From Pseudobdellovibrionaceae bacterium (GTDB lineage Bacteria > Bdellovibrionota > Bdellovibrionia > Bdellovibrionales > UBA1609): a DNA stretch of 64,000 bases. The notes beneath the pieces are model-generated. The model did not search any database. It was given only the letters and a program-made list of their open reading frames with translations, and was not told where the DNA came from. A program made the translations under genes and the position numbers. This document shows, piece after piece, positions 1,415 to 54,971 of this stretch. The DNA lies in contig JACKAM010000002.1 in assembly GCA_020635075.1 (NCBI GenBank), positions 365,896-429,895 on the forward strand, given 5' to 3'. How positions within the stretch are numbered: position 1 is the stretch's first letter; each line of letters opens with the position of its first letter.

Positions 1415-2059
1415 TTAATCCGCTCCGCGCATACAGCCCCGATCTGGCTCTTCCCAAACCTCATAGTTTGGCGTTATCTCTATACCAGATTTTACTCGTC
1501 GCCCTTTGAGCGTCGTCTCTTTTGCCGGTCGCAAACAGCGAATGTCAGAAAACTTGATTCCCTTTTTGGGAAGCTCCTTTGGGAAATCAATCACGGACCC
1601 AGCTGGAATTACCCCTTCAGGCAACTTCAGATCCTCACAAAGCTTGATCTCAAAAACTTCCAGCGTCTGCGCGTGCTGACCCAAGTATTCACAGATCTTG
1701 ATGCCATTGATCGTGATGGGGCCTTTAAAGTAAACATGCCAAAGGTCAGATCGACCTTCCACCACAACACCGGCAGGGTAATTGCGCCCACCCATTTCAA
1801 CTTGAGCAGTCGTCGTTAGCCCAACATTCAGACCATCGATTGGATCCATGAGATTCAAGCGGACATCAACTTTTTGAAAATCAGTCTTGGCAAAGAAGGG
1901 GATTACCTTGAGGTTCTGATTTTGATTCTCAGACAATGATGATGTTGGATTTTTAGCAGAATCGGCCAAGCACCTCAACCCACTCAATCCAATCAGACCA
2001 AAACAGCAACTCCCCATGAATCGAATTATTAATTTCCAAAATGCATTACTATTGAGCAT
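1415..2059 (-). CDS. Secreted hypothetical protein; putative immunity protein for the orphan toxin module 2049-3737
   Basis: 214-aa ORF with a hydrophobic N-terminus. It overlaps the stop of the upstream toxin-like ORF by 11 nt. Paralogous to ORF 4605-5291 (shared GQHAQTLE[VI]FE[IL]KLCED and IP[AG]GS motifs). The immunity role is inferred from position only. Confidence 0.55.
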   Translation of the reverse strand: MLNSNAFWKLIIRFMGSCCFGLIGLSGLRCLADSAKNPTSSLSENQNQNLKVIPFFAKTDFQKVDVRLNLMDPIDGLNVGLTTTAQVEMGGRNYPAGVVVEGRSDLWHVYFKGPITINGIKICEYLGQHAQTLEVFEIKLCEDLKLPEGVIPAGSVIDFPKELPKKGIKFSDIRCLRPAKETTLKGRRVKSGIEITPNYEVWEEPDRGCMRGAD

Positions 2060-3737
2060 TAGGCACTAATCCTATATGAATATGATGATAGTGACCTTTA
2101 ATCATCTTTGTCTTGAATTTGATCGGCTGATTTCCAACACCACTATCAGGAAATGGTGTGAGATCGCACTCAACATCCGGAGTCGAAAAGTCATCAACAC
2201 ACTTTCCTATCGGCACCAAAGCACCACCTAAGCTCTCAGCCAACATTTCTTTTTGTTCAATAGTCCCCGAAAGCATGATCCTCTGCTGCCATCGCTCTCT
2301 TGCGGGAGCCACAGGAGGAGGTAAATTGGGCTGTGGTGGCGGTTTTTTGGGGCCAGGAGAAAAATATATGAAGGCTCGCGGAAACCGCTGCGTTAGATCG
2401 GTCCATTTGTGTCGATTGTACACGGTCCAGCGACTTAGGCGTATTATTGCACGTAAATTCCTGGCGGCAATTCTGCGGTTTTTCTCTAGCTCCAAATTGT
2501 AGTCAGGCACACTTACCGACGTCACACTTTGGGCAATCAACTCAGGACATACTGAAGATGTGGCCAGACAGGCTTGACGGGCGGTCTCGCTAAGTCCCTC
2601 AAGGGCTAACAAGAATTCTTTGGAATGGTCCCAATCCTTGATTCTCCTAGTAGCGTTAGGATGATCATAATAATTCTCAAAACTGCCCTTAACCTCACAT
2701 GCTGATTGCTCGTCAGGAATCGAGGGTTGACTCACGACCACAGCCTGAAATTCAAACGGGATCTGATCTCCTGAACCTACCGCGAAGGCAGAGCAATCTT
2801 GATCCGAAAAATACCTAAGATCCATGTGCTCGCCATCCTTGTGAGACATATGGGTGGTGTTCAGTGCTTCCTCCTGATAATTTACAGAAAATCTTCCCCC
2901 AAAAGGCAGAGACCCATCGTTGCACAGTGTCCTCACTCCCATGACATTGGTGAGGTAATGAACCACTTCTGCCATTTCAGATGAAACATAGCTACTCATG
3001 GAAGTACTGTAATCTCTCGTACAGCCGCCTGCAACGTAATTATGGGGCTGATTATCCTTACGTCTCAAATTGAACGAGGTCTTAAAGGTTCTTTCTAGTG
3101 GCTCGCCCGATGTAACCTTGAGTCCAGTTTCCGTTTCTGTACCCACGAAGGTGTAAGCAAACTTTAGGTCGCTGATCTTTCTGGAGTTGTGATTGGCCCA
3201 ATTATACTTTTGCGAAATGGTCGTCATCATGCCTTCAATGTGATCCTCAATGCCTCCTGACGCCAAAAGCTCAGAATAAAGAACGTCCTTCTTTTTGGCA
3301 TTCCCGGTATTTGTCGCGTGGTCTTCCCTGAGTGGCAGATCAAATTCCAATAAATCGTGGCTTTCGTTGCCAACAAAAACCCGAACGCTGTCCCAGGTCA
3401 CCTTGTCTTCATTGTATTCCGCAGTAAACGAGTACCGGGGTACAAAGCGACCACCCCTGTTTTTGTAGGTATTGGAAGTTTCAGTGCTCTGAAATAACCC
3501 TGTTAAATCCAAATCAACAGGAAACAGCCCCTCTGTTTTGCTCAAGGACCGCTGAGCATCTCCGGTTGAAGAGTAGATCTGACTGGCTTGTTGGCTGCTG
3601 GGGACCGATGGCTGATCGGCGTCTCCGTTGGTTCCTTTGTTGATTGCCGTTAACTTGATGTAGTCAACCCTGGGAAAAGAGACGTAACAATGAGCCCGAT
3701 ACTCAGTTTCCCATTGTTGAGGAGCAGTTGGTATCAT
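2049..3737 (-). CDS. Orphan toxin-like protein: homolog of the C-terminal ~600 aa of the giant ORF, with a MepA/LAS-like metallopeptidase module; no signal peptide
   Basis: 562 aa. Its N-terminus QQWETEYRAHCYVSFP aligns with HYWEALPHRMSCHISWP of the 2001-aa protein, and LFPVDLD aligns with MFPVDVD. It carries CNDGSLPFGGRF...HMSHKDGEHMDLRY and a terminal GHYHHIHIG (H..D plus HxH zinc-ligand layout). Confidence 0.7.
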   Translation of the reverse strand: MIPTAPQQWETEYRAHCYVSFPRVDYIKLTAINKGTNGDADQPSVPSSQQASQIYSSTGDAQRSLSKTEGLFPVDLDLTGLFQSTETSNTYKNRGGRFVPRYSFTAEYNEDKVTWDSVRVFVGNESHDLLEFDLPLREDHATNTGNAKKKDVLYSELLASGGIEDHIEGMMTTISQKYNWANHNSRKISDLKFAYTFVGTETETGLKVTSGEPLERTFKTSFNLRRKDNQPHNYVAGGCTRDYSTSMSSYVSSEMAEVVHYLTNVMGVRTLCNDGSLPFGGRFSVNYQEEALNTTHMSHKDGEHMDLRYFSDQDCSAFAVGSGDQIPFEFQAVVVSQPSIPDEQSACEVKGSFENYYDHPNATRRIKDWDHSKEFLLALEGLSETARQACLATSSVCPELIAQSVTSVSVPDYNLELEKNRRIAARNLRAIIRLSRWTVYNRHKWTDLTQRFPRAFIYFSPGPKKPPPQPNLPPPVAPARERWQQRIMLSGTIEQKEMLAESLGGALVPIGKCVDDFSTPDVECDLTPFPDSGVGNQPIKFKTKMIKGHYHHIHIGLVPNAQ

Positions 3738-3773
3738 CTGAAGCTGTATCTTTCCGAAGGATTGATTTAAGTG

Positions 3774-3833
3774 GAGTGACCGTCACTTTTTGGTATTGCA
3801 GTACAATACTAAAAGTTGACGGTCACCTTACTA
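3774..3833. repeat. 60-bp dyad-symmetric repeat, copy A (57/60 identical to 6327-6386)
   Basis: GAGTGACCGTCACTTTTTGGTATTGCAGTACAATACTAAAAGTTGACGGTCACCTTACTA. It contains GTGACcGTCAC and tTGACgGTCAC sites flanking an inner GTATTG-cagta-CAATAC palindrome. It lies 36 bp upstream of the ATG of ORF 2049-3737. Confidence 0.9.
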
Positions 3834-4466
3834 CAAAACATCTCGCGAAGCTTTAGTGAGGATGAAGAGGGCGGTCAAAGCAGCAACCTCGGTCAGTCCG
3901 TGGACAACGAAGACTTGGGAGCTGCCCTCCGCTACCAACCCGAAACTGAGAAGGACTGGAGCCTGGGAACGGATGCCGGTATCAAACTGGTTTCACCCCC
4001 TGATCCCTTTTTGCGCTTTCGTATGCGCCGTACCTGGTGGCCAGGAAATTGGGAAATCCGCGCCACAGAAACCGTCTTTTGGTTTAAGTCCGAAGGCTAT
4101 GGTCATACGGAATCCCTAGAGTTTGACTATCCTCTCAGCCTTTCTTTTCTGTTTCGTTTTGCCAACCAGGCCTCCTGGCGCAAAAATGATCTGGAGTACC
4201 GCTTCGACAACACCCTTAATTTGTTTCAGAGAGTGAGCGACCGCTTGGCCATTGCCTACACCGCCGGGATGCACGGCCGCGATGTTCCGGCCGTCGCCGT
4301 TGATTCCTATTCCTTTGGCGTCAACTTCCGTCGCCGCATTCACAAAGACTGGTTGTTTTTCAACATCAAACCTGGCGGCTTCTGGCCCCGTGAAGAGAAC
4401 TTCACTTATGTCGCCTCCATCAGCTTCAAACTCGAAGTCATGATCGGTCAGGGCGAAACATGGTAG
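3816..4466 (+). CDS. Hypothetical; possible 5'-truncated beta-barrel outer membrane protein remnant
   Basis: 216-aa ORF whose TTG start lies inside repeat copy A. It has no signal peptide. It shows alternating-hydrophobic strands (YSFGVNFRRRI, FTYVASISFKLEVMI) and a C-terminal aromatic residue (…GETW-stop), as in OMP barrels. Confidence 0.3.
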   Translation: MTVTLLQNISRSFSEDEEGGQSSNLGQSVDNEDLGAALRYQPETEKDWSLGTDAGIKLVSPPDPFLRFRMRRTWWPGNWEIRATETVFWFKSEGYGHTESLEFDYPLSLSFLFRFANQASWRKNDLEYRFDNTLNLFQRVSDRLAIAYTAGMHGRDVPAVAVDSYSFGVNFRRRIHKDWLFFNIKPGGFWPREENFTYVASISFKLEVMIGQGETW

Positions 4467-4604
4467 GCTGCCAACTCCGCCCTCAATTCAGCACAAGTGT
4501 TTGAGTCATTCAAACACTGTTATTTTGCCGCAGCCGACAAGCCCATTAAGCCAGTCAGAAATTCTTTAGTATAATCCCAATCCAGAATTCGCCGATACAC
4601 GTGA

Positions 4605-5291
4605 TTACTCACTTTCGGAGGTTTCCCACACTTGAACCTCACACGAAGTGATCTTGTCAGGGTCCGATGGCATTCCCGTTTCAGATCGAGGTGCAAGGAT
4701 AGAGCCCGTCAAAAAGGTGCGGCCCTTGAACTTCATACTTGCCCCAGGTGAAATACACCCTACTTCGGGCCACCTCTGACCCGCCTTAACCTTGCCGTTA
4801 ATAAAAGAGACAAAGGAACCTCCCGGTATCCTCAAACCATTGATCTCCGAATCCTCACATAGCTTGAGCTCAAAAATCTCCAGCGTCTGTGCGTGCTGGC
4901 CCAGGTTGCCACATACTTTTATAGAGTTCACTTCTACAACCATCTTCTCTCCACCCAGGCGGAAAAGAGTACCTATTCCCGATACAAATGTTCCTCGCGG
5001 ATAGGTAATACCCCCTATCTTCACAGGCTTTTTTACCCATAATTTAACAACAAAGTCTGTAGGGGATGGCCCCTCATTAAACACCTGGCTTATGTACACA
5101 TTGTCCCAAACCATATCTTTAAAGATCGGCCACTTCGATAGCTTTTCCAAATCATCCTTTAGGACAACTGGAGGACTACTCTTCATTACCTTAGGGATAT
5201 CATCGTTCGAATCTGCAATAACGGAGACCGAGACAACAATCAAACAACTTAGAAAAGCACTTCTCCAAATCATGACAGATCTCCCCCTCAA
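4605..5291 (-). CDS. Secreted hypothetical protein; putative immunity protein for the orphan module 5298-6320
   Basis: 228 aa with an N-terminal signal/TM segment (MIWRSAFLSCLIVVSVSVIADS). It starts 6 nt after the toxin-like ORF. Paralog of 1415-2059. Confidence 0.55.
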   Translation of the reverse strand: MRGRSVMIWRSAFLSCLIVVSVSVIADSNDDIPKVMKSSPPVVLKDDLEKLSKWPIFKDMVWDNVYISQVFNEGPSPTDFVVKLWVKKPVKIGGITYPRGTFVSGIGTLFRLGGEKMVVEVNSIKVCGNLGQHAQTLEIFELKLCEDSEINGLRIPGGSFVSFINGKVKAGQRWPEVGCISPGASMKFKGRTFLTGSILAPRSETGMPSDPDKITSCEVQVWETSESE

Positions 5292-5297
5292 CCAATA

Positions 5298-6320
5298 TCA
5301 CTGATAAATTCCCAAATGTAGATGATCGATATGCCCTGACGCACCATCGTTTCTCAAATTCTTATTATCTCCAGGCTCTTGGTGTAAATCACACTGGGCA
5401 TCCTCATCGCACGATCCAATTCTCACTAAACCCGAACCATCTGCAGACAGACTCAACATGTCATGGTCATCCACTGTTCCATCTAAAAATAGCTTTTTCT
5501 GCCATTCGGGGCGGCTATCAGTTTCCTTAATAAATGAAATCATCACCTGAACTTTATCAAATCTCAGACTCAACGCTGTCCACGTTCGTCTGTTATACAC
5601 GACCCATCGACTCAGTCTTTTCATCGCTGCTAGATTCCTAACGGAAATCCTTCGGTTCTTCTCTAGCTCCAGATAGTAATTGGAAACACTAGCTGGCGTG
5701 ATTTTTTGGGCAATTAGCTCGGGACAAGTCGAGGAAGTTGTCAAGCAGGTTTGACGAGCAGTCTCGCTGAGTCCCATCATGTCTGCCAGGAACTCCTTTG
5801 TATGGTCCCAGTCCTTAATCCGCCTCGATGCTTTTGGGTGATCATAGTAGTCTTCAAAACTACCTTTAGTATCACACGCGGAATGCTCATCAGGGATCAC
5901 AGGCTGATTAACATTAATCGCTCCTTGAAACTTGAACGGAATCCGATCTCCCGGATCTACCAAAAAGGCAGAGCAATCTTGATCCGAAAAGTATCTAAGA
6001 TCTATATGTTTTCCTCCATCGTGGGTACCATGTCCCAACTGAGGGATATCCAGATTAACTCGAAACTGACCACCAAAAGGCAGAGACCCATCGTTGCACA
6101 GCGTCCTCACTCCCATCACATTGGTGAGGCAATGAACGACTTCCGCCATTTCAGATGACACGTAACTACTCATCGTACCACTGTAATCATCTATGCAGCC
6201 GTTCACAACGTAATTATGGGGCTGATTATCCTTACGTCTCAAATTGAACGAAGTCTTAAAAGTTCTTTCTAGTGGCTCGCCTGAAACAACCTTGAGTCCT
6301 GTGCCGGTTTCTGTACCCAC
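5298..6320 (-). CDS. 5'-truncated orphan copy of the toxin C-terminal (MepA/LAS-like) module
   Basis: 340 aa. Nucleotide-level homology to 2440-3143 runs up to position ~6323 and then breaks into repeat copy B. The start is a GTG that corresponds to an internal Val (FVGTETETG) of the 562-aa paralog. Putative catalytic motifs are retained (GHGTHDGGKHIDLRY ... GHIDHLHLG). Confidence 0.6.
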   Translation of the reverse strand: MGTETGTGLKVVSGEPLERTFKTSFNLRRKDNQPHNYVVNGCIDDYSGTMSSYVSSEMAEVVHCLTNVMGVRTLCNDGSLPFGGQFRVNLDIPQLGHGTHDGGKHIDLRYFSDQDCSAFLVDPGDRIPFKFQGAINVNQPVIPDEHSACDTKGSFEDYYDHPKASRRIKDWDHTKEFLADMMGLSETARQTCLTTSSTCPELIAQKITPASVSNYYLELEKNRRISVRNLAAMKRLSRWVVYNRRTWTALSLRFDKVQVMISFIKETDSRPEWQKKLFLDGTVDDHDMLSLSADGSGLVRIGSCDEDAQCDLHQEPGDNKNLRNDGASGHIDHLHLGIYQ

Positions 6321-6326
6321 GAGGTA

Positions 6327-6386
6327 GAGTGACCGTCACTTTTTGGTATTGCAGTACAATACTAAATAGTGACGGTCACCTTACTA
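6327..6386. repeat. 60-bp dyad-symmetric repeat, copy B
   Basis: GAGTGACCGTCACTTTTTGGTATTGCAGTACAATACTAAATAGTGACGGTCACCTTACTA. It has two perfect GTGAC-N-GTCAC sites whose centres are 40 bp apart. It directly abuts the truncation point of ORF 5298-6320. Confidence 0.9.
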
Positions 6387-6427
6387 AAAGTATGTCTGTA
6401 TCTGGATAATTGGGATACCCCGCTGAA

Positions 6428-7768
6428 CTACTTCGTACAGTTCCCGGGTGAAAAATCCTTGTGAATGATTTTACCATTCGAAATTAACCCAAGACTTCCC
6501 TTGGGAAGGACTGTCCCTAGGATTTTAGTATCCTGATCCACATGGATACAGCGGATAGGTGGGAATCCTTGACTGATCCGTTTTTCATGACGGCCAAAAT
6601 ACAAGGTCGCCCCCTTAGGTAATTTCAATCCGTTGATTTTGGCATCCTTCATCAGTTGCAAAGAGCGAGGGTTGCCGTTGTCCACATCAAAAACCGCTGT
6701 GCCGCCAAACTCCGCACCTCCATATTTGATCGACTCGGCCCCAAACAGCACCTGTTCTTTCCCATCCGGACCCGCAACAAAAATGAGAGAGCCTTTCGGC
6801 CGTTGGAGATCATAGAACCGAAAGTCCTTTTTGACCGAAACCACATATCGGATGTCTGGAAATGAGGATCCAAGCCTTATCTTCTTAAGGGAGGAAATTT
6901 GGCTGTAGGCCAGTACATAATCCTCTGGACTTAATTCCCTCAATCCCGGGGCTTTCCGCACGGAATCGAAGTTCTTTGTTTCTCCCGCCCGCCAAAGTAG
7001 CTTTCCATTTTCATCCAAACCCTCTTTATCCGAGCTTTTACCGGTGTGGTCGCAGTTAACACATGGCGCCTCCGTCGCCGGCGGCTCCACAATGTCGGGA
7101 GGGGTGTAAAGGCAGGTGTTCTCATTAAACTCCAGCTGAAGCTTTCCCGCATCATCTATATGAACCAGTCTTCTCTTCCACACATGAGTCCCCTGGATCG
7201 TCATATCCTCCTTCCCCTGAAGGCAAACAATTGGCGGAAACTCCGAGGTTAATGGGCCCCTATGGCGCCTAAAGTTGATTGATGTCAACTTAGGCAGCCT
7301 AACTCCATTAATGACTACATCTTTCAAGGTTCTGGCTTCTCGAGGATTTCCGGTATCGATATCCATTGAGCTTACTGCTATCTCTTTTCCTTTCCACAGG
7401 GCAGCGGATTCACCAGAAATACGCATTTCTGGTCCTCCCCACACTCCACCTAGTCCAGTTATCTTTGTGCCCTTCCTGCCATGTACCTCATAGATTCGGA
7501 AGTCCTTGTTAATGATGAGTTCAAACTGAATTTGAGGAACTGCGAAGCCACTTTCCGGATCAGCTTCAAGATAATCACTAATACTCAACTCATAGTCACC
7601 AGGCTTCAACTTGTCCAATCCCGGAATACCCATCAAATATTTGATACTCCGAAGCTGCCCTTCTGTCCATGGTGTCCCCTCTGAACCACCAGGCAAGGTA
7701 ACCAATCCTTCCTGACCCCAACCTGCTGCGCTCCAGGCAATACAGAGAAGAAATATCAACGTCTTCAC
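6428..7768 (-). CDS. Secreted two-domain hypothetical protein (internal duplication of the 7818-8600 domain); putative immunity/accessory protein
   Basis: 446 aa with signal peptide MKTLIFLLCIAWSAAGWG. The first half plus the linker TPPDIVEPPATEAPCVNCD aligns with the whole 260-aa neighbour. The second half repeats the domain (KKDFRFYDL..., GFPPIRCIH). Confidence 0.65.
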   Translation of the reverse strand: MKTLIFLLCIAWSAAGWGQEGLVTLPGGSEGTPWTEGQLRSIKYLMGIPGLDKLKPGDYELSISDYLEADPESGFAVPQIQFELIINKDFRIYEVHGRKGTKITGLGGVWGGPEMRISGESAALWKGKEIAVSSMDIDTGNPREARTLKDVVINGVRLPKLTSINFRRHRGPLTSEFPPIVCLQGKEDMTIQGTHVWKRRLVHIDDAGKLQLEFNENTCLYTPPDIVEPPATEAPCVNCDHTGKSSDKEGLDENGKLLWRAGETKNFDSVRKAPGLRELSPEDYVLAYSQISSLKKIRLGSSFPDIRYVVSVKKDFRFYDLQRPKGSLIFVAGPDGKEQVLFGAESIKYGGAEFGGTAVFDVDNGNPRSLQLMKDAKINGLKLPKGATLYFGRHEKRISQGFPPIRCIHVDQDTKILGTVLPKGSLGLISNGKIIHKDFSPGNCTK

Positions 7769-7817
7769 ATCAACTCCCCATCGGTCTCTTGTTGCGGGTG
7801 AAAGGTGACCTGCCTAT

Positions 7818-8600
7818 CTAGTTAGATGATCCCTTTGCTGCTCCTTCACCGGCCCCGTCGCAATTAAGGCAGGGAGCCTCAGTTGCCGGCGGATCAACAA
7901 TGTCCGGGGGAGTATGAGCACATGCAGTCGAGGTAAACTCGAGAAGGGGGGCACCTTTTTCATCAAAATTCACCACCTTGCCTGCTGGTATCGTCAATCC
8001 AGCAATTGTCAGCTCTTTCTCGGCCTGGATACATACAATCGGCGGGAATCCCGCTATTAGCCTTTCACGATGACGACGAAAGTAGACTTTCGTGGACTTT
8101 GGGAGAGTTAAGTCATTAACTCTAAGTTCTGAAACCAAGCTTATCGACCTTGGTAGACCCGTATCAATATCGAAGGTTCCCACCCAAATATCAATTCCTC
8201 GCCATTTTGCTGGCCCACCTGAAAAATGAACCTGTGGACCTCCCCACCCTCCTCCTAGGCCGGTAACTACCGTCCCCCTTTTCCCATGCAAATCGTAAAA
8301 TCGGAAGTCTTTATTAATCTTAAGCTCAAATTCAAACCGAGGTACGGCGAAACCGCTCTCAGGATCAGGATCCAAATACTCACTGATAACCAATTTATAA
8401 TCACCTTGTTTTAACTTATCAAATCCAGGCACTCCCATCAGATAATCGATACTTTTTCTTTGACCAGAAGTCCATGAGGTCTCCTTAGATCCTGAAGGAA
8501 GCGTCGCAAGTTGGCCCAAAGCTTCTAAGCCACTGAATGCAAGCACAACAAACAGTGCTCCAATTGTAACCACGTAGAGCCTCCTATCTTTCCATGGCAT
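7818..8600 (-). CDS. Secreted hypothetical protein; putative cognate immunity protein of the giant toxin-like ORF
   Basis: 260 aa with a signal peptide (LYVVTIGALFVVLAFSGLEALG). Its start overlaps the stop of the 2001-aa ORF by 17 nt, which suggests translational coupling. Confidence 0.65.
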   Translation of the reverse strand: MPWKDRRLYVVTIGALFVVLAFSGLEALGQLATLPSGSKETSWTSGQRKSIDYLMGVPGFDKLKQGDYKLVISEYLDPDPESGFAVPRFEFELKINKDFRFYDLHGKRGTVVTGLGGGWGGPQVHFSGGPAKWRGIDIWVGTFDIDTGLPRSISLVSELRVNDLTLPKSTKVYFRRHRERLIAGFPPIVCIQAEKELTIAGLTIPAGKVVNFDEKGAPLLEFTSTACAHTPPDIVDPPATEAPCLNCDGAGEGAAKGSSN

Positions 8601-11600
8601 GCAGGTGGAAATGCGTTAGATGAGTCGCTGTGGGATCAAACCACACGTTTGTTTCCGACAAATCACAAGATGTCGGATTAATCTGACAGGAGGTATATGA
8701 CTGTGGACCGACAGTAAACTTGCCTATTTTACAATTCAGATCCTCCGAACAAGTTCCAATCGCTTCCATCCTCCCATCAGTGGTCTTTTCGAGAAGAGGG
8801 AAATTGTCCACTTTGCCATCAAATAACAACTTCTCCTGCCATCTTTTGAAATACGAAGGATTGCCATTTGCATACACTCCCTGGGAGACTAGGACGGCGA
8901 GGGTCTTGTCCTGGAGTACGTAACTCGACAATATACTTCTTTGATTCATCGTCCAGTGTGCAAGCCTAAAATTTGCAGCTTTGCCATTGGCAAACGCCTC
9001 CTTATCTTCCGGACTAAAATTCTGAGGAGCAACACATGCAGAATAGCTGTCCTTGCATGTTAAAAGCAAAGTCGAATTACCCGATGCATTCACCCATTGG
9101 AGGAATCTCCTCGCCAGAGGAAGATCTACTAATCTTTCCTGCGCATCATTGGCATCATAATAATCAGGAAAGCCATTTGGATATGCTGATGTTTGCTGAC
9201 AACTGCTCTTCCTTGCAAGGTGAAGATCGGCATTATCACACGTTAAATCAACATGATAACGAAAGTCCAAATGTAGCCCATTTTTGTGGGAATCATGAGC
9301 CGGAATTTTCCCGCCAAAAGGTAATGAAGCATCATTACAATAGGCCGTATGAGGATCATAGAATTTCACAGCCCTGACTATATCAATTATCGGCCTCCGG
9401 GCAAATATGGACACATTGTTTCCATACTTCCGATCACAGACACCAGGAACAAAATTAAAGGCCTTGGCAGGAGATCTCTGATGACTGGCCTTTAGAATAA
9501 AAGGATTGAGGTTAAAACTGGCTTTAAACTGAGCTCGTTGAGCTGTTGGAGTGATCAGGATCTGGTCCGTCAGAGGATCATAGACCTCCACGAAAAAATT
9601 GATTGCGAACTTGTCAGGTTGGTTCAAGGGCGCCCAGTTCAAATGCTCGGTGAGGTTTTTGACATCGACCTCAATCCGGACTTTCGTCTCGCTCCTCTTT
9701 GTTTGGCTGGGAATTTCCTCCAAGATCCTGAAATAGTACCGACGTTGAGTCGAGGTCGAAAAACCAACGAGGCCACCCACTCCGGAGACCCTAAAGCGTT
9801 GGTTGTCTCCGACAGACAGCGTGACAGTGTATTCGGGCCTCCAAGTTCCGCCGTGGTTCTCATAAAGGTTGTAGTGGGTCGATTCATCCACATCCACTGG
9901 AAACATTCCGGTTGCATAGGCGAGACTTCGCTTTGAATCCTCCACTGGTGTGTACACTGGAGTGGGAGGTGTCGTGGTGGCGGCCATTATCGTGTTTTGC
10001 GCCGATGCAGTGACGACAACCGGAGTTGTTTCCCCAATTCCATCTTCGACAGATTTGATTTCTGGATAGGGTCCGGTAGGCCAAGAGATATGGCAGCTCA
10101 TTCGGTGTGGCAATGCCTCCCAATAATGGAACCAGTCCGTCGAAAGGCTTACATATGGCCTAGGATCAAAGTTATCATTTGGATCCAAATCTACAAGATG
10201 AAGATCTTTCGGAATTTTCACTCGCCAAGTCCAGTTGAGACCCCAATCAATCACATTTTGACCTGCCTCCCCAGCTGGAGGGAACTTCACATAATCTGCC
10301 ATTTCTTCGTCACTTGAAATCCCTAGGCGGGCCCTGACATTGGCGGCACTATCATAAATGGTCTTAGTAATGGTTTCCCGCTTCACCGGATCCCAGAAAT
10401 TGACCCTGATAGGGAATACTCTGGCATCGTTACCTCTGATGGTATTGATATCCACATTTCTCCAGTACCATTGTTTGGCGTGGGTTGCGGGATCATAGTT
10501 GGGAGGGCGACACCAAAGAGCCTTACTACGCTCATACCACTGCAAGTAGGGAATATAGCCAGATAAGGATTGAAAATTACAGTTGACGATGACTTCTTCA
10601 GCAAAAGGCGGAATCTTTTTGGCATCCGTGTAACTTGGCTTAGTTGGGTCTGTCGAGACGTAGTGGTCATGATTCAAGTATGGATTACTGTGGGGCCCCA
10701 CTTGGTGAATGATACCATCGCCAGGATAAACTCGGCTTTGACAAATGTCCGTCATATTGGTGTTCATGTATTCTGGCCCAGTGATAGACTGTATGGGGAA
10801 ATCAACCGTCGGCGGAATATCGAAACCTTGGACAAGCCCCACGTTAGCCGATTTGACGGCAGTTGACCCTCGGACAACCTCTAGGACCTGATCAAAGGAG
10901 CTTGGTCGATATTCCGGCAGGGAGAACGAAAAGCTCGGCTGCCTTGAATCCAGTGCCGCAAACGAAGTTTCCTGAGCCCCGACCTTCTGCGCCAGTTGAC
11001 TCACCTCGTTACCTGGTTGATTGAAATCAATAAAGGCATAGGTACCAGGCTCTAAGTCCGCCAACTTCTCCATAGGGCCGGTCGATGGCGACGTGGTTTC
11101 AACCAGGTACTTTCCTGCTGGTAGATCCTCAAAAGAAACATTTCCAGAGACCTCGTGGCGACTCCGAACAATGGAAGTACCAAGGGCGCGAACCAGAACC
11201 TCCCGGGCATCGGGGGGTAAACCAACCGTGATTCCAGAACTTCCAACATAGTGTGGTTCTGTGGCGCCAACTACGGGAGTTCCATCAACGGCATTAGACC
11301 CATGGATTTCAAACCAATAGGTATCGGTCAAATTATCAAGTTTTGAAAGAAATTGTTGGGTATCGACAACAATCTCAGTGCCATCAATTTCAATAATATC
11401 GGTCAAATCAAGCGGAATCGGTTTTCCCATTGGCGACCAGTGAACAAATAAAATTGGCTCTTGGCTTGATGAGGGCTCAGGAAAACTCAGAGCCACTCCG
11501 TGATTGTTTCGCAGCCTGAAAGTTGGCTTTGAAGTGGGAATCACATTACCTATCGAATCCCCAACGCGGAAACAGGTTGAATGATGTGCCATAAATGAAC

Positions 11601-14589
11601 AGTCGACATCGTTGACGGCAACCACGACGGCCAAAGAAGCCGTGTCTGACTTTCCAGATGGACTGGTCATAGTAAGATCTACTTGGAACACTCCCTCGGT
11701 CTCAAAGACATGTTGACCATTTCTCAGCATACTGCTGGTTCCATCCCCAAAATCCCAGTGGGCCTGAGTGCCGTCGTCATACATCACTGAGTCATCTGAT
11801 GAAAACTCGATGATTGCCGGAATTGAATCGATATTAAGAACCTGCCCTTTGGCGAATTCTGGTCGCGGGTACTTTTTGGAGTCAATGATCGTGGGGTTTG
11901 ATACTGGAAAGGGTTCTGGTAAGACATCAACGACTTTTTCAGCCAGATACACTGCCCCTGATGAATCAGTCACCTCTAGTCTTACCGTCTTGGACCCTGG
12001 CACAGAAAAAATATGAGACGAAATTTCTCCTAAACCAGATCCACCGTCCCCGAAACTCCATTGATATGCCAGTGGCAGGCCTGTCGGGTTGTAAGTCGGA
12101 ACTGCTGAAAAGGTTGTGGTCAGTCCTGTGTACACAGCTTGAGGTGATGAAATGAAGTTAGGGACGATATCACCACCAGGCGGGTTGGGGTCCAAGACTG
12201 TGACTACTAAAAATGAGCTTGCGGTTTTCCCGTGATTGTCCGTGACCGTAAGCACAATCGAATGTGCCCCGGGTTGGTCAAATGTATCGACGTAATAGGG
12301 ACCAGTCCATACATGGCCATTTGAGTTGTCCCATCTATACTCAATTATTTCTCCATCGGGATCGTAGGAATTATAGGCGTCGACTTCGACTCGCAAAGGG
12401 GCTGTCCCCGTCGTAGGAGTTAGAGCCACAATTTCTGCAACGGGAGGCTGATTATCTAGTGGTGGTGGCGCACTGAGAACGCGGATCTCGGCTGTGTGGG
12501 TCGCGTAATTTCCTGCTTGGTCAATAACTGTGAGGCTAGGAAAATACTGGCCAGGCTCTTGGTAGGTGTGGCTTTCATAGGGGCCACTGATTGATTTCTG
12601 TCCGTCTCCCCAGCTCCAAATCCAAGTTGTCACCTGATCGTCGCTGTCCCAGGTGTAACTGCCATTAAAACTGACTTCTACCGGAGCTTGGCCTACAAGC
12701 GGTGTGGCAATAAAAAGTGGCAGAGGTGGTGTCCCCGAATAGACATTGATTTCAGTTTCAAGCCGAGTGGTGAGATTTTCTGGATTTGTGAGTGAAAGAG
12801 TGATTTTGTAAAGGCCACTTTTCGCGTAAGTATGGCTTATGCTGTGAAGGTCTGATCCAATGCCTGTTAAAACTGTACCGTCTCCCAGATCCCATTTTAG
12901 ATTAAAATCGGCAATTTGATTAAGATCAAAGGTATCAAGCCAGATTTGAATCTCTTCATTGACCGATGGCGAGTAATTGTCGAGGGCAATCGCTACGGGT
13001 AGATCGGCTGATGTGTGCTGGACATTGACGGTCTTTTTCGTCAAATACCTTTGACCCAAGACATCAAAGGCTGAGAGCTGAACTTCGTAGGGACCGGGGC
13101 CTGGGTAGGTGTGGCTTTGGTTTCGGCCTCTGGCGTAACTGTTGTCTCCGTAAAACCAGTGGAAATTGTGATACTCAATCGGAGCTGTTGTAAGGCCAAC
13201 TGAGTTATCAAACCACAACTCTAGAGGATCTGAAGGGTTGGCTTGAGCCAAAAAATCTACTTTTGCAGGGTCACCTGAAAGAACGTGGACCGTAAAGTGC
13301 TCAACTGAGGACTTTCCTTGAGCGTCCCTGACGGTGAGTCTTCCGTAATAAGATCCTGGGTAGTTAAAGGTGTGGCTTGTCATTGCCCCTTGAGTGAAAT
13401 CAATCGGATCATGGTCATCCCCAAAGGTCCATTCGACTTGGGAGATCGAATCACCTGAGTCGATGTCAAATGACTGAGAGGCGTCGAGTTGAACTGTAAA
13501 TGGACTTTGCCCCAACAACCCCGATGAAATCAAAACAGGTGTGGGAGGTACATTGGCATCAGTCTCGCCCACGACGATCTGAGTTGTCACTTCCCGCCGG
13601 GCCAAGAACTGATCTCGAAGCCTGAGCCTGACAGTGTAGGTTCCAGGCTGTGAATAGGTATGGCTCACAACTGCTTGATCAGTACCAATCACTTCAGGTG
13701 AATTATCCCCAAACCGCCAACGATAACGGATTTCATCGTTTTCTGGGTCAAAGCTCTCTGAGGCATCAAATGTCACGGTCAAGGGGGCTGGGCCACTGGC
13801 TTGATTAACCGAAATATGAGGCACTGGGGGCTGATTGGGCACAATTTCAATTTGTCTTGAAGTCGAAGTTGAAAGCCCTGAGTCGTCAGTAATGGTGAGA
13901 GTGACCTGATAAACTCCGGTGTTTTGATAATAGTGCTCCACACTGGCATATAGGTCCGTTTCATGAGGGTAGAGAGTCAGGATTTTACCTATGCCAAAAT
14001 CCCAGGTGTAGCTCACTATCTGACCCCCATCCTGGTCTTCAGCTGGCATCAAAGTGAAAAACAACGCCTTGGTCGGCACGTGATCCGTTGTCGTAACAAA
14101 AAAGATTCCGCCTCCATCAGTAGGAGGCTTTGGTTTTGGCAGCACAGTATACTCAATGGGAACCGAGGTCTGAGCGCCATCGTCGTCAGTTGCGGTTACT
14201 GTCACCACATAAACCCCTGCCACTTGCCACGAGTGCTCGGCTACAAAGCCAGTACTTGAGGTATTGTCCCCCCAGTCAAAATGCACCTCGGTTACCAAAC
14301 CATCTGGATCGGTTGAGGCCATGGCATCAAAGAGCACCACTTCATCTTCAAGGGGCTGATCGGTACTCCAGGTCAAATTCAAAATAGGTGGCTGATTGGA
14401 GTCTTCACCGTAAATGCTCACTTTAACGAAGGAACCGGGAAAGCCTTTAAGCTTTAAAGACAGTGTTGATGTGTCTTCAGTGAGGTCAATCGGTATTCGA
14501 ACTTCCTGGGTGCCGATGTTGAGGCTACCCGGAGTTAGGATCAAATTTTGATTGAGCCACACATGACCGGCATGAACGCGAGTAAACAA
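8584..14589 (-). CDS. Giant PKD-repeat exoprotein with a C-terminal MepA/LAS-like metallopeptidase module (body of a gene frameshifted at 14704-14712)
   Basis: 2001-aa ORF. It has about ten PKD-type repeats (for example APLTVTFDASESFDPENDEIRYRWRFGDNSPE..HTYSQPGTYTVRLRLRD) spanning roughly nt 11700-14340. The C-terminal ~290 aa (nt 8587-9459) read CNDASLPFGGKIPAHDSHKNGLHLDFRY ... THFHLHAMER. The annotated TTG start is probably an internal Leu codon. Confidence 0.85.
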   Translation of the reverse strand: MFTRVHAGHVWLNQNLILTPGSLNIGTQEVRIPIDLTEDTSTLSLKLKGFPGSFVKVSIYGEDSNQPPILNLTWSTDQPLEDEVVLFDAMASTDPDGLVTEVHFDWGDNTSSTGFVAEHSWQVAGVYVVTVTATDDDGAQTSVPIEYTVLPKPKPPTDGGGIFFVTTTDHVPTKALFFTLMPAEDQDGGQIVSYTWDFGIGKILTLYPHETDLYASVEHYYQNTGVYQVTLTITDDSGLSTSTSRQIEIVPNQPPVPHISVNQASGPAPLTVTFDASESFDPENDEIRYRWRFGDNSPEVIGTDQAVVSHTYSQPGTYTVRLRLRDQFLARREVTTQIVVGETDANVPPTPVLISSGLLGQSPFTVQLDASQSFDIDSGDSISQVEWTFGDDHDPIDFTQGAMTSHTFNYPGSYYGRLTVRDAQGKSSVEHFTVHVLSGDPAKVDFLAQANPSDPLELWFDNSVGLTTAPIEYHNFHWFYGDNSYARGRNQSHTYPGPGPYEVQLSAFDVLGQRYLTKKTVNVQHTSADLPVAIALDNYSPSVNEEIQIWLDTFDLNQIADFNLKWDLGDGTVLTGIGSDLHSISHTYAKSGLYKITLSLTNPENLTTRLETEINVYSGTPPLPLFIATPLVGQAPVEVSFNGSYTWDSDDQVTTWIWSWGDGQKSISGPYESHTYQEPGQYFPSLTVIDQAGNYATHTAEIRVLSAPPPLDNQPPVAEIVALTPTTGTAPLRVEVDAYNSYDPDGEIIEYRWDNSNGHVWTGPYYVDTFDQPGAHSIVLTVTDNHGKTASSFLVVTVLDPNPPGGDIVPNFISSPQAVYTGLTTTFSAVPTYNPTGLPLAYQWSFGDGGSGLGEISSHIFSVPGSKTVRLEVTDSSGAVYLAEKVVDVLPEPFPVSNPTIIDSKKYPRPEFAKGQVLNIDSIPAIIEFSSDDSVMYDDGTQAHWDFGDGTSSMLRNGQHVFETEGVFQVDLTMTSPSGKSDTASLAVVVAVNDVDCSFMAHHSTCFRVGDSIGNVIPTSKPTFRLRNNHGVALSFPEPSSSQEPILFVHWSPMGKPIPLDLTDIIEIDGTEIVVDTQQFLSKLDNLTDTYWFEIHGSNAVDGTPVVGATEPHYVGSSGITVGLPPDAREVLVRALGTSIVRSRHEVSGNVSFEDLPAGKYLVETTSPSTGPMEKLADLEPGTYAFIDFNQPGNEVSQLAQKVGAQETSFAALDSRQPSFSFSLPEYRPSSFDQVLEVVRGSTAVKSANVGLVQGFDIPPTVDFPIQSITGPEYMNTNMTDICQSRVYPGDGIIHQVGPHSNPYLNHDHYVSTDPTKPSYTDAKKIPPFAEEVIVNCNFQSLSGYIPYLQWYERSKALWCRPPNYDPATHAKQWYWRNVDINTIRGNDARVFPIRVNFWDPVKRETITKTIYDSAANVRARLGISSDEEMADYVKFPPAGEAGQNVIDWGLNWTWRVKIPKDLHLVDLDPNDNFDPRPYVSLSTDWFHYWEALPHRMSCHISWPTGPYPEIKSVEDGIGETTPVVVTASAQNTIMAATTTPPTPVYTPVEDSKRSLAYATGMFPVDVDESTHYNLYENHGGTWRPEYTVTLSVGDNQRFRVSGVGGLVGFSTSTQRRYYFRILEEIPSQTKRSETKVRIEVDVKNLTEHLNWAPLNQPDKFAINFFVEVYDPLTDQILITPTAQRAQFKASFNLNPFILKASHQRSPAKAFNFVPGVCDRKYGNNVSIFARRPIIDIVRAVKFYDPHTAYCNDASLPFGGKIPAHDSHKNGLHLDFRYHVDLTCDNADLHLARKSSCQQTSAYPNGFPDYYDANDAQERLVDLPLARRFLQWVNASGNSTLLLTCKDSYSACVAPQNFSPEDKEAFANGKAANFRLAHWTMNQRSILSSYVLQDKTLAVLVSQGVYANGNPSYFKRWQEKLLFDGKVDNFPLLEKTTDGRMEAIGTCSEDLNCKIGKFTVGPQSYTSCQINPTSCDLSETNVWFDPTATHLTHFHLHAMER

Positions 14590-14686
14590 AGTCTTAAAGG
14601 CTGCAAGGCCATGTTTGATCCGGCAAACAAACGAAACAAAGCTTCGCTCTTTTGGACAAACTCCTAAATCAACAGGAAGACCGTTT

Positions 14687-15004
14687 TCAATAACAAGGAG
14701 ATACCCCCCCCCTAGCTAGATCAAGACTTTGCGTTTGAACGTGAGGCTTAAAGATGCGGCCATGGAAAGTCTCGGGGCCCCAGACGAGATCGAGTTCTTC
14801 AGATGAATTTTGATTGTTCGAATCACTTGGTGGTTGAACGACCGACGGACCATGCTTAAACCAGTGGCCCATCTTGGCGTAGGAAACTTCCGGGGCAAGG
14901 AACCCAAAAGCCAAGAGCACAAAAAAGGCTCTGAAGGTAATTGAAGTAACAACAAACCACCAACTACTGCTACGACCGCAAGCTCTCTCAACTCCAAACG
15001 CCAT
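14687..15004 (-). CDS. Signal-peptide-bearing N-terminal fragment of the giant exoprotein gene, separated from it by a frameshift
   Basis: The 105-aa ORF begins MAFGVERACGRSSSWWFVVTSITFRAFFVLLAFGFLAPEVSYA-K. It ends 5 codons after the G9 tract. Removing one G fuses it in frame to ORF 8584-14589. Confidence 0.7.
   Translation of the reverse strand: MAFGVERACGRSSSWWFVVTSITFRAFFVLLAFGFLAPEVSYAKMGHWFKHGPSVVQPPSDSNNQNSSEELDLVWGPETFHGRIFKPHVQTQSLDLARGGVSPCY
14704..14712 (-). repeat. Homopolymer: C9 on the plus strand, G9 on the coding strand, at the frame junction
   Basis: Counted directly: ataCCCCCCCCCtagc. Both reading frames overlap only at this tract. Confidence 0.95.
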
Positions 15005-15334
15005 GACTTCTCCCTTTTTATCCCGTCAACGTGCCACTTTTAAACACGGGAAGTCGTTCTTATTTTGTGAAGACTTGATTCTAACCTAACAATCCTTGTT
15101 GACCTATCACCCGGCAAAACGAGGGTCGTGCAAATCAAGGACTTAGAGGCCAAAACCAGAGAGGGGGAAACCGAGCAAATCCGCATTGGCTCAGGCTTTG
15201 AGGGGAAAATAAGGATTATTCACAAGAGTGTTTCAGATTTAGAAGGTACGCCCGGGCCTTCGCTCGGGGCCTCGACTCAACTTTGATTAAGATCAATCCC
15301 TTCTCGAAACGCTTTCTCAAGCAATTTACCCTCG

Positions 15335-15652
15335 CTAGGTCGCGAGGGTAAGCTTATAGATCGAGGCCCCTAGATGATCGGCAAGATCTAAGAGCTTGAG
15401 GTCTTCGATTCCTTCAATTCTCAATATCGCCTGACATTCGCGCAGAGAACCAAGGGCAATAGAGTAAAACCGCCTTTTGTCCTTTGGACTTGGCTTGCCA
15501 CTCCCCTCGGCAAGATTCAGCGCCACGGATGAAGACGCCCGGAGCATCTGATCCCGCAAATGAATCGGCAGCTTCAACAGCTTCACTTGCTGACAAAATT
15601 CCACTGCCAAATCTAAGGTCCTAAATCTGTATTCGTGTTTTTTCTGTGTCAT
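15335..15652 (-). CDS. Four-helix-bundle protein (23S rRNA intervening-sequence protein / Avd-like family)
   Basis: 105 aa. The motifs ...SSVALNLAEGSGKPSPKDKRRFYSIALGSLRECQAIL... match the family signature (NIAEG...s.kd...f..iA.GS..E) as I remember it. Confidence 0.75.
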   Translation of the reverse strand: MTQKKHEYRFRTLDLAVEFCQQVKLLKLPIHLRDQMLRASSSVALNLAEGSGKPSPKDKRRFYSIALGSLRECQAILRIEGIEDLKLLDLADHLGASIYKLTLAT

Positions 15653-15714
15653 TTTAACTTCCTTTGTAAAGTGTGTTGGCCATCACCCCAAGGTGGGCCA
15701 ACCACTGCCACAAA

Positions 15715-15940
15715 GGAAAACGGATCACGGTACGGATACGGGAACTGTCGCCGAAACGCTAACAGGTTACGGTTTACTGGTTACGGAAAAAGGGGACCAA
15801 CGAACGCAACAAAGGAGGAATTTCCGTTTGCGTAACCCGTTACCCGGAACCAGTAAACGTGACAGTGACAGTGACAGTTACGGATACCGAAACCGTCACG
15901 ACAACGTTTACGGGTTACCGATCACGGATTACGGTTCTTG
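15715..15940. repeat. Array of short ACGG/CCGT-centred repeats (GTTACGG, ATCACGG, CCGTAAC), plus (GTGACA)x3 at 15859-15876
   Basis: Examples: cggatcACGGtACGGatACGG, ggttACGGtttactggttACGG, CGTAACCCGTTACCCGG, tttACGGgttACCGatcACGGattACGG. It lies in the divergent intergenic region between the 4HB and HNH genes. Confidence 0.8.
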
Positions 15941-16195
15941 GTTAACGAGAAAAAATTCCGTTCGTTTCAAAAATATTTTAAACACTACTATTGACGCCTT
16001 TTTCGTCGTCGTTAAACGCCCAATATTCGCTTTAACTCGCAAATTTGGTTTTCCTCTCTCGCTCTCACTAAAAACCTACCAACGCCTTTCCTGGTGCGCC
16101 TCCCAGGCGACTTGATCTACGTTAGGCAGCTCGCCAAACTAGGCGCTATAAAACCCATGCTATACATCCATTACTCGTTTCGAGGGGGATTTAAC

Positions 16196-39370: not shown

Positions 39371-40021
39371 ATGACTATGAAGGACTCTTTACAAGCACTG
39401 TTTGTTCGCCCTCACGAACTGAAAACCCGGGAAGGTCTTCCCACCGGCTCGACCGAGTTGGATCAATTTTTGATTTGGCAGGGCATTCCTAAAGGTGCCG
39501 TTAGTTTACTTGTCAGCTCTCATGGCAGAGGTGCCACAAGCCTATGGGGCGATACGGCCATCCCCCTCACCCAACAAAAGAAGTGGGTAGCCTGGATGAA
39601 CAGCAGTGAGCACCACTTGTGCCCATGGAGTTGGTGGCAAAAGAAGATGGACTTCTCACGCCTGCTCGTTGTCTCCTCCCCGGATAACCGCAAAAAATTC
39701 CTCTGGGCTTTACATGAGCTTTTGTCTTTGAGTCTTTTCGATCTCATTGGTTGTGACTTGGGGGAACTCCAACTCCGGGATAGCGATGTTCTTAAACTTT
39801 CCCGCCATGCCCGCCGCGCCCAGGCGGCTGTGGTCCTGACCAGCGCCAATCGCTTTGTCCGGCGCAGCTCTTTTTACAGTTTGATTCTTAATTTCAACAG
39901 TCCCCGCCTCAAGATTGAGCGTGCCCAACATCGACTCACCCCCCACACCATAAAAAGGAGAAACACCTATGCGGACCTTGTGCCTCAACTTGCACAGAAC
40001 CGAAAAGCCCTCAGTAGCTGA
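39371..40021 (+). CDS. imuA: ImuA-like (SulA/RecA-fold) protein of the imuA-imuB-dnaE2 cassette
   Basis: 216 aa. Motifs LPTGSTELDQFL..GIPKGAVSLL. It sits between lexA and imuB. Confidence 0.65.
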   Translation: MTMKDSLQALFVRPHELKTREGLPTGSTELDQFLIWQGIPKGAVSLLVSSHGRGATSLWGDTAIPLTQQKKWVAWMNSSEHHLCPWSWWQKKMDFSRLLVVSSPDNRKKFLWALHELLSLSLFDLIGCDLGELQLRDSDVLKLSRHARRAQAAVVLTSANRFVRRSSFYSLILNFNSPRLKIERAQHRLTPHTIKRRNTYADLVPQLAQNRKALSS

Positions 40022-52589: not shown

Positions 52590-52753
52590 AACAGTCCCCT
52601 CTTGGCAAAGAACCCGTTTTACCCATTTGCTTACACAACTGCTTTTGTCACAGCTGACAAAAAAAAATGAGTGCCAACTGGGACACCTAAATTTTTAACA
52701 TCGGACAATTGGAAATCTTGGATGGGGTTTTAGCCCACCCCTGAAGGGAGCCA

Positions 52754-54748: not shown

Positions 54749-54971
54749 AAAAGCTGTTTCATCACGAGACAGCTCGATCCTAGTCATTTTGGGAAAAGAT
54801 CCAAACTATTGACAATTGGCCGTCGAGAATCTTGACACCTGGCCAATTGCTGAACGCAGAAAAAGGCGAATTACTAAATAATTCCGTGGGCTTCTGGCGA
54901 TATCGTCTAGTCCTTTGTATACTATGTACAGGATTTAGGGGGGACGTCGTTCGCGATCAGTTTTTTTTTCA

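Follow-up and report, generated by a model that had tools for sequence, protein, structure and literature searches.

The window analysed here, 64 kb of contig JACKAM010000002.1 from a Pseudobdellovibrionaceae bacterium to whose positions all coordinates refer, carries on its minus strand a giant gene for a PKD-repeat protein with a run of nine G's in its 5' coding part, and it is this tract and its effect on the reading frame that we describe. Across the tract region the minus strand reads ...GATCTAGCTAGGGGGGGGGTATCTCC... / ...CAAAGTCTTGATCTAGCTAGGGGGGGGGTATCTCCTTGTTATTGA..., the nine G's occupying 14712-14704, and inspection of this strand confirmed the claim of an earlier note on this DNA that the run lies between a short signal-peptide open reading frame (ORF1) and the giant frame. 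ORF1 begins at an ATG and, in the G9 state, ends ...SLDLARGGVSPCY at a stop codon five codons past the tract. The large frame opens after a TAG at 14718-14716 with LGGGYLLVIENG... / LGGGYLLVIENGLPVDLGVCPKERSFVSFVCRIKHGLAAFKTLFTRVHAGHVW... and is free of stops from there down to 8584, in agreement with the note's own check of 14587-14715. Both frames are open over 26 nucleotides (nt; 14715-14690), and the tract sits inside that overlap, 100 codons from the beginning of the gene. In the large frame, a start-type codon first appears as the TTG at 14589, 38 codons past the tract, and no Shine-Dalgarno-like sequence is visible before it on the minus strand. When the tract was edited in silico, removal of one G gave a single ORF of 2139 amino acids (aa) and addition of two G's gave one of 2140 aa; the fused junction of the G8 and G11 edits reads ...LDLARGG-YLLVIENG..., so that both the fusion and the junction predicted in the earlier note were recovered. 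In its sequenced form the window allele is frameshifted and its body lacks an export signal, which is the OFF state that the note had described; all of its factual statements are correct.

Judged by eye and by Kyte-Doolittle hydropathy, the N-terminus of ORF1 combines basic residues (R7, R11, R25) with a hydrophobic core (AFFVLLAFGFL, Kyte-Doolittle 2.7) and a VSYA motif followed by K, an n/h/c layout typical of a Sec signal peptide, which we predict here and which bears out the earlier assignment. The signal peptide is conserved in two relatives, L001 and L007 (relatives' contigs are labelled L001-L008 and relatives' proteins P0001, P0003 and P0004), and the last 75 nt before the giant gene's ATG are almost invariant across the three lineages compared below. 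The product initiated at the TTG has no hydrophobic N-terminus (hydropathy maximum 1.18).

Tract lengths in relatives were taken from assembled contigs, at consensus level. When the 1005 C-terminal aa outside the PKD repeats served as query in an exhaustive HMMER search, four distant relatives were recovered. One of them, the protein P0004 (NCBI MCB0383893.1, "PKD domain-containing protein, partial", from the Bdellovibrionales metagenome-assembled genome (MAG) GCA_020435105.1), starts MACGNQKAWGRSNRWLSFASLSLRALFVLLTIGFLAPEVSYGKTGHW... and continues unbroken via ...ELARGGYLLVIENGLPVDLRSCPKERSF... (...ELARGGYLLVIENGLPVDL...) into PKD repeats. Its junction, ...ELARGG-YLLVIENGLPVDL..., matches the one predicted in the earlier note, and in the underlying DNA (L007) the tract is G8. 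A query with a conceptually fused N-terminus led to a single protein cluster, P0001, a 152-aa product annotated as a hypothetical protein in Bdellovibrionaceae/Bdellovibrionales MAGs, which matches ORF1 through ...SLDLARGG and beyond that point runs in another frame; the identical 152-aa product occurs in a second NCBI MAG, and the longest contig of the cluster measures 554 kb. At the orthologous position this lineage has G7 in five of five separate assemblies (L001-L004 and L006, metagenome or MAG contigs). A three-way alignment of 535 nt that starts in the 5' leader and reaches 50 codons beyond the tract shows the tract as the sole frame-changing difference, the one other indel being an in-frame 3-nt change within the signal peptide. 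The tract is uninterrupted in all three lineages, and the two out-of-frame alleles depart from G8 in opposite directions (G9 versus G7).

Comparison of tract length across related genomes, which the earlier note had proposed as a check on its idea of a switch, therefore gives G7, G8 and G9 and not one uniformly conserved split, and because the related genomes differ in this way an unstable tract is favoured over such a split. This variability between lineages is independent of the window, since G7 recurs in five assemblies and G8 is present in one MAG. Searches with the exact flank pattern and profile-guided locus searches found no further tract-region orthologues in genome and metagenome contig collections, and within the collections searched the gene family is limited to a handful of MAG and metagenome contigs. 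The G8 MAG belongs to the same submission series as one G7 assembly (whole-genome shotgun prefixes JAGRAD and JAGRAH). In a separate observation, MAG GCA_020434765.1 contains both a window-type allele (L005, JAGRAH010000132.1, 99.99% identity) and a G7-type allele (L001, JAGRAH010000193.1, ~89%); as one MAG holds both, either two related populations have been combined in the bin or the locus is present twice in the genome.

The pattern of substitution follows the fused frame on both sides of the tract. Between the window and L001, the ratio of non-synonymous to synonymous substitution rates (dN/dS) in the fused frame is 0.22 for ORF1 (1.25 and 5.8 in the other frames), 0.19 for the 38 start-less codons between tract and TTG (7 synonymous, 5 non-synonymous; other frames 1.3 and 3.2) and 0.089 for the next 256 codons of the body (other frames 1.24 and 2.97). 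Over all three pairs the fused frame gives 0.22-0.34 upstream of the tract and 0.12-0.13 downstream, with the other frames above 1 on either side, at a three-way dS of 0.46-0.71. The fused frame is under purifying selection on both sides of the tract, including the 38 codons before the TTG. That stretch is coding and start-less, so it is translatable only as a continuation of ORF1, and the low dN/dS at this dS indicates that the gene has been functional as a fusion for most of the divergence of the lineages. The 6-kb body in the window has no further stop or frameshift besides the tract. With a natural G8 orthologue that encodes the predicted fusion and start-less codons that evolve as coding sequence, the one-gene reading of the earlier note holds, and we regard it as established by these sequence comparisons that the locus is one gene, not two.

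The tract itself is an oddity in its surroundings. No other G/C run in the window exceeds 6 bases: there are 15 runs of 6 and none of 7 or 8. The heptamer GGGGGGG has three matches, all within the tract, as against 18.8 +/- 6.0 in dinucleotide-preserving shuffles, all of which reach at least three; given this deficit, long G/C runs are strongly avoided in the genome and the tract is the exception. Its codons are the rarest for Arg and Gly (AGG 11%, GGG 19%), the probability of AGG-GGG-GGG given Arg-Gly-Gly is 0.004, and GGG-GGG accounts for one of 91 Gly-Gly codon pairs in the window's genes.

Two side observations concern homopolymers more generally. The window's other 9-nt runs, A9 at 52659-52667 and T9 at 54961-54969, both lie between ORFs, where they could alter promoter spacing or transcription and not a reading frame. 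The base after the tract (14703) is a T, which creates a GnT motif at 14703-14712, and such motifs are reported hotspots of T-to-G substitution that lengthens G runs (PMC12344412); at this site the substitution would extend the run and leave the frame unchanged (Tyr to Asp).

We favour, with a rough probability of 0.55, the interpretation that the tract is a contingency-type (phase-variation) translational ON/OFF switch for a polymorphic secreted effector. The single gene on the minus strand from 15004 to 8584 encodes a protein of ~2140 aa in which a Sec signal peptide is followed by an N-terminal region, by ~10 PKD domains and by a variable C-terminus of ~1000 aa, and slipped-strand mispairing during replication would alter the length of the poly-G run. 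At G8 (or G5 or G11) signal peptide and body would share one frame and a full-length exported protein would be made (ON). At G9, the state of the window, translation would end five codons past the tract and leave the body untranslated and without an export signal (OFF), and G7 would be OFF in the other frame. We infer the slippage mechanism, its reversibility, its adaptive value, and polarity or loss of downstream expression in OFF cells. Several hallmarks of contingency loci are present: an uninterrupted tract in the 5' coding region, a frame that is toggled by a change of +/-1, ON and OFF lengths among relatives, and a gene that is otherwise intact, with fused-frame selection on both sides of the tract (dN/dS 0.09-0.34). 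The window's G9 also reaches the poly-G cut-off of at least 9 applied to phase-variable tracts in the Neisseria phasome analysis with PhasomeIt (PMC5953494).

Other observations weigh against a switch. The G7 contigs diverge from one another by 0-1.8% and all have G7, a length that falls short of the usual mutability threshold; the lineage gives the impression of a locked OFF state, not of a flickering one, and resembles a fixed frameshift. Only three lineages were found across all searched collections, a very small sample, and retention of an uninterrupted tract over their divergence has p ~0.1-0.2 by a rough estimate, which is not compelling alone. No phase-variable homopolymer is described for Bdellovibrio-like bacteria in the literature searched. 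Finally, L005, the only other assembly of the window allele, ends at 14697, 7 nt before the tract, and the window's G9 thus depends on the window alone.

It is on this last point that the strongest competing explanation turns, namely that G9 is an assembly or base-calling error, that the true length is G8 with the gene intact, and that only the G7 lineage is frameshifted. A +1 homopolymer miscall of a true G8 is possible because the sole other assembly stops short, and polishing with short reads may be weak exactly there. Homopolymers of at least 9 are a classic site of consensus error in long-read assemblies, Illumina quality drops at them too, the window's contig is seemingly of Mb scale, which suggests a long-read assembly, and an in-frame G8 allele is known in the relative L007. 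However, L005 (MAG GCA_020434765.1; a short-read Illumina contig of 10,855 nt) matches window positions 14697..3843 at 10,854 of its 10,855 positions, with one substitution at 13991 and no indel, and because the two agree without indels the window sequence is accurate across many 6-nt homopolymers. Nor does any other homopolymer in the window resemble a frameshift: in the 64 kb, the eight candidates for a homopolymer-linked broken gene comprise the tract and seven ordinary operon junctions. The sister lineage, moreover, has a genuine frameshift at this very tract in five assemblies, which makes a real G9 unsurprising. We therefore consider a miscall unlikely. The break in L005 would be expected if short reads fail across a long or heterogeneous G run and is not evidence of heterogeneity; the other end of that contig adjoins a copy of a 66-nt repeat.

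Rather unlikely, in our estimate, is a tract that acts as a mutational hotspot without switching function in a dispensable gene, such that G9 and G7 would be independent, effectively permanent inactivations and the alleles early pseudogenes. Such decay would account for two of the three lineages being out of frame and for the stability of G7 in five contigs despite divergence of up to 1.8%, and the spare cassettes and mosaicism described below speak for fast turnover of the locus. Yet no further stop or frameshift occurs either in the 6 kb of body sequence of the window or in the 185-243 codons of the body that could be read in the G7 lineage, and pairwise dN/dS values of 0.09-0.2 leave little room for a long neutral phase. 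Differences in the gene within the G7 lineage amount to ~15 synonymous positions versus ~6 non-synonymous codons, which also argues against decay, although the numbers are small and the changes are clustered as if by recombination, which may account for part of them. An uninterrupted tract has, besides, been kept in a genome otherwise without G/C runs of at least 7.

Recoding, in which RNA-polymerase slippage or ribosomal frameshifting on G GGG GGN would give low, set expression in every cell, we judge very improbable. A 9-base run equals the length of the RNA:DNA hybrid, a known prerequisite for transcriptional slippage; purifying selection persists in lineages that look OFF, and G-only heptamers permit tRNA re-pairing both ways. 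But the orthologues would require shifts of +1 nt (G7), 0 (G8) or -1 nt (G9), and because a programmed signal would conserve its direction this disfavours programmed recoding. The fold of 14580-14760 shows no significant downstream RNA structure (minimum free energy z = -0.81), Rfam has no match at the tract, and the bacterial transcriptional slippage that has been characterised is not known to use other than A/T runs. A G-tract analogue from Bifidobacterium breve has been studied by experiment, and slippage during DNA replication was given as the source of its ON expression (PMC9187656).

Three more specific candidates of this kind were set aside. The G run resembles a Shine-Dalgarno sequence, and the tract with its following bases (AGGGGG...UAUCU) resembles the Escherichia coli RF2 (prfB) site; on inspection, no suitable shift codon follows it. 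We rejected prfB-like +1 frameshifting since there is neither a CUU-U-type shift codon nor an in-frame stop at the required spacing and the orthologue shifts differ. A -1 shift on G GGG GGU in the G7 lineage is formally slippery and is not favoured, there being no significant downstream structure and no conservation of the requirement. A regulatory RNA or terminator at the tract was discarded as well: Rfam is empty there, and the weak hairpin at 14713-14696, in which the G run pairs with CTCC ahead of a T-rich stretch, is one of 2 such sites where 2 are expected by chance.

That two separate genes, one for a small secreted protein and one for a large cytoplasmic PKD protein, merely abut at the G run is scarcely credible: ORF finders and NCBI MAG annotation do call them apart (P0001, the 152-aa hypothetical protein), but 38 conserved, coding-like codons without a start codon precede the TTG, which has no Shine-Dalgarno sequence, the tail of ORF1 after the tract is unconserved (5 aa long in the window; in L001, 52 aa read in a different frame), and a natural single-ORF orthologue exists.

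The features of the locus are collected in Table 1.

Table 1. Coordinates of the tract, the giant gene and the neighbouring cassettes (window positions).
Feature	Position	Strand	Remarks
5' leader, highly conserved	15005..15094	-	GGGAG Shine-Dalgarno-like, ~5 nt upstream of ATG
ORF1, 105 aa, 5' part of the gene	14687..15004	-	signal peptide and first 57 mature residues
Predicted Sec signal peptide, aa 1-43	14876..15004	-	cleavage predicted after VSYA; from sequence features and hydropathy
G9 homopolymer (C9 on + strand)	14704..14712	-	frame-setting tract; in-frame G8 state = Arg-Gly-Gly, AGG GGG GGG
38 codons of the large frame, tract to nominal TTG	14590..14703	-	coding only when fused to ORF1
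Gene body, 2001 codons from TTG	8584..14589	-	~10 PKD domains, then ~1000 aa without family; dN/dS 0.089 vs L001
C-terminal domain, 314 aa	8587..9528	-	tentative MepA-like (LAS-type) zinc peptidase
o260, small signal-peptide protein	7818..8600	-	overlaps end of giant gene by 17 nt; candidate cognate partner/immunity protein
o446, tandem duplication of o260-type domain	6428..7768	-
66-nt element, second copy	6324..6389	.	immediately upstream of o340
o340, 5'-truncated spare C-terminal domain copy	5298..6320	-	60% identical to o562, 26% to C-terminus of giant protein
o228, small signal-peptide protein after o340 cassette	4605..5291	-	38% identical to o214
66-nt palindrome-rich element	3771..3836	.	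immediately upstream of o562 cassette; L005 ends beside it
o562, 5'-truncated spare alternative C-terminal region	2049..3737	-	47% identical to P0003 C-terminus
o214, small signal-peptide protein after o562 cassette	1415..2059	-	homologues follow giant gene in L008

Pfam recognises ~10 PKD domains in the giant protein and nothing at threshold in its final ~1000 aa, and searches of this region against NCBIfam, against the PDB (by sequence and by profile) and by word search of 5.8 billion proteins likewise gave nothing at threshold. Its C-terminal domain is known from only five diverged copies in ~15 billion proteins. All five have the invariant pattern H-x2-H-x2-G-x3-D-x-R-Y ... H-x2-H-x-H together with several conserved cysteines, and within it H81-x6-D88 and H306-x-H308 (invariant in 5/5) fit the zinc-ligand motifs H-x(3-6)-D and H-x-H. 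H-x6-D combined with H-x-H characterises the LAS-type zinc peptidases. Over the first motif the best Pfam match is Peptidase_M74 (PF03411), which does not reach threshold (E = 0.014; 15.4 bits, cut-off 25) and comes from only one of the five copies. AlphaFold2 reached a predicted local distance difference test (pLDDT) score of 30 with one sequence and 51.7 with five, too poor for fold comparison, and Foldseek found no match for the latter model. A MepA-like identity of the domain is therefore weakly indicated, and the "enzyme-bearing" body of the earlier note becomes plausible, through the conserved His/Asp motif, and not established, the Peptidase_M74 match being sub-threshold. The domain constitutes an uncharacterised protein family with a metal-binding signature.

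The window contains three copies of the 314-aa domain, one that closes the giant gene and one each in o340 and o562, both of them 5'-truncated. Each copy is paired with a small gene downstream (giant gene with o260 and o446, o340 with o228, o562 with o214), and the small partners are homologous to one another; o260, which is 55% identical to the first repeat of o446, matched neither Pfam nor NCBIfam, and these partner proteins are without a known family. The two 66-nt elements are 92% identical (repeat family D4), contain nested inverted repeats (GTGACCGTCAC ... GTGACGGTCAC) and may be a recombination or regulatory site. Exchange between cassette and expressed gene is visible among relatives: the DNA of o562 shares 96.9% identity with the expressed 3' end of L007, the G8 orthologue, and L007 itself matches the window at 94-100% over 14195-12400, beyond which identity drops to ~50%, the level of unrelated sequence. 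Among alleles the C-terminal domains are 23-30% identical. A distant JGI metagenome contig, L008, has the same order of giant gene, partner, cassette fragment and partner. Loci under fluctuating selection typically have polymorphic C-termini, spare cassettes and small cognate proteins, and by these features the present locus appears to work like a polymorphic toxin/immunity locus with orphan modules; since PKD domains are the only ones recognised and no known delivery domain is present, we do not file it as a member of that class. The earlier note's picture of a self-dangerous weapon fits the variable C-termini with their small partners and the spare cassettes.

On the other side of the giant gene, the segment from its ATG to the next gene (15005-15334) is more conserved between lineages than the coding sequence is; neither a sigma-70-like promoter (by a simple scan) nor an Rfam family was found in it. 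The upstream gene, at 15335-15652 (-), belongs to the 23S_rRNA_IVP family (PF05635), and just upstream of it lie degenerate short tandem repeats (units GGTTACG, GTGACA and TTACGGA; 15700-15935); both the gene and the repeats are also kept beside the G7 allele in L001. The 23S_rRNA_IVP family includes the Avd proteins of diversity-generating retroelements. A retroelement of this type was considered and set aside, no reverse-transcriptase domain being found among the scanned neighbours of the gene. Farther away, a 497-aa ORF at 16094-17587 (+) is recognisable only by an HNH nuclease motif at its C-terminus, which weakly resembles the IscB HNH region, and 39371-44547 holds an imuA-imuB-dnaE2-type mutagenesis cassette that consists of a weak ImuA_translesion match, a Y-family-polymerase-like ORF and a 1132-aa DNA polymerase III alpha paralogue.

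Taken at its fullest, the locus might stack two systems in a Bdellovibrio-like and possibly predatory bacterium, a poly-G switch and recombinable silent C-terminal cassettes with periplasmic immunity-like partners, and its C-terminal domain might represent a new, very divergent family of MepA-like cell-wall endopeptidases; we put this composite forward as a tentative and on the whole doubtful proposal. If it is true, a phase-variable, cassette-switching cell-wall weapon would exist outside the host-associated pathogens known for contingency loci. Nearly all homopolymer contingency loci on record come from host-adapted pathogens and a few commensals, and with a well-supported case from an environmental member of the Bdellovibrionales, stochastic ON/OFF switching would reach a new phylum and a new ecological setting. 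For annotation, gene callers and the NCBI MAG pipeline split what should be one gene with a variable tract. Since G7, G8 and G9 alleles are already present in public metagenomes, the switching hypothesis is directly testable at the level of reads.

Among known systems, the penicillin-insensitive murein endopeptidase MepA (PF03411) shares its H-x2-G-x3-D and C-terminal H-x-H motifs with the five copies of the C-terminal domain, whereas the profile match here falls below threshold and the PDB has no sequence match. Polymorphic toxin loci (Rhs, CdiA-CT/CdiI, MafB) resemble this one in having a conserved N-terminal part followed by a sharply divergent C-terminal domain, a small cognate gene for each C-terminal domain, and 5'-truncated spare modules downstream; they differ in that no Rhs/YD, haemagglutinin-repeat, PT-VENN or other known delivery or pre-toxin domain is present here, only PKD. 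To our knowledge, polymorphic toxin loci are not usually combined with a homopolymer frame switch.

The poly-G/C loci of Neisseria (e.g. pilC), Campylobacter jejuni and Haemophilus are alike in that a 5' coding tract sets the frame of a surface or secreted protein and in that ON and OFF tract lengths are found among related strains. Their genomes have dozens of such tracts, compared with a sole long G/C run in 64 kb here, and several of them lack or modulate mismatch repair. The organism studied here is, in contrast, environmental and not host-associated, and one of its lineages is stably G7 across samples.

The closest parallel in gene architecture that we can offer is provided by the pilus genes bbr_0113a/b and bbr_1889a/b of B. 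breve. In strain UCC2003, a G10 tract lies between bbr_1889a (65 aa, with a Sec signal) and bbr_1889b (2674 aa), and G9 is the ON length (PMC9187656), and switching by replication slippage was measured by Maximum Depth Sequencing and was enriched in vivo (PMC9187656, Penno et al. 2022). As here, a short upstream ORF with a Shine-Dalgarno sequence and a Sec signal precedes a huge downstream ORF that has neither, the reference genome is OFF, and a change of +/-1 fuses the ORFs; the B. breve upstream ORF also carries the promoter, and its intragenic tract is G10/G11, longer than the G7-G9 found here. The two cases further differ in organism (a gut commensal of the Actinomycetota versus an uncultured Bdellovibrionales MAG) and in cargo (an LPXTG pilin versus a PKD-repeat protein with a variable C-terminal domain and partner genes), and switching, heterogeneity and phenotype were measured in B. 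breve, whereas our case is known from sequence alone. The proposed kind of switch is already known; what would be new is the phylum, the ecological setting, the type of cargo and the combination with cassette exchange.

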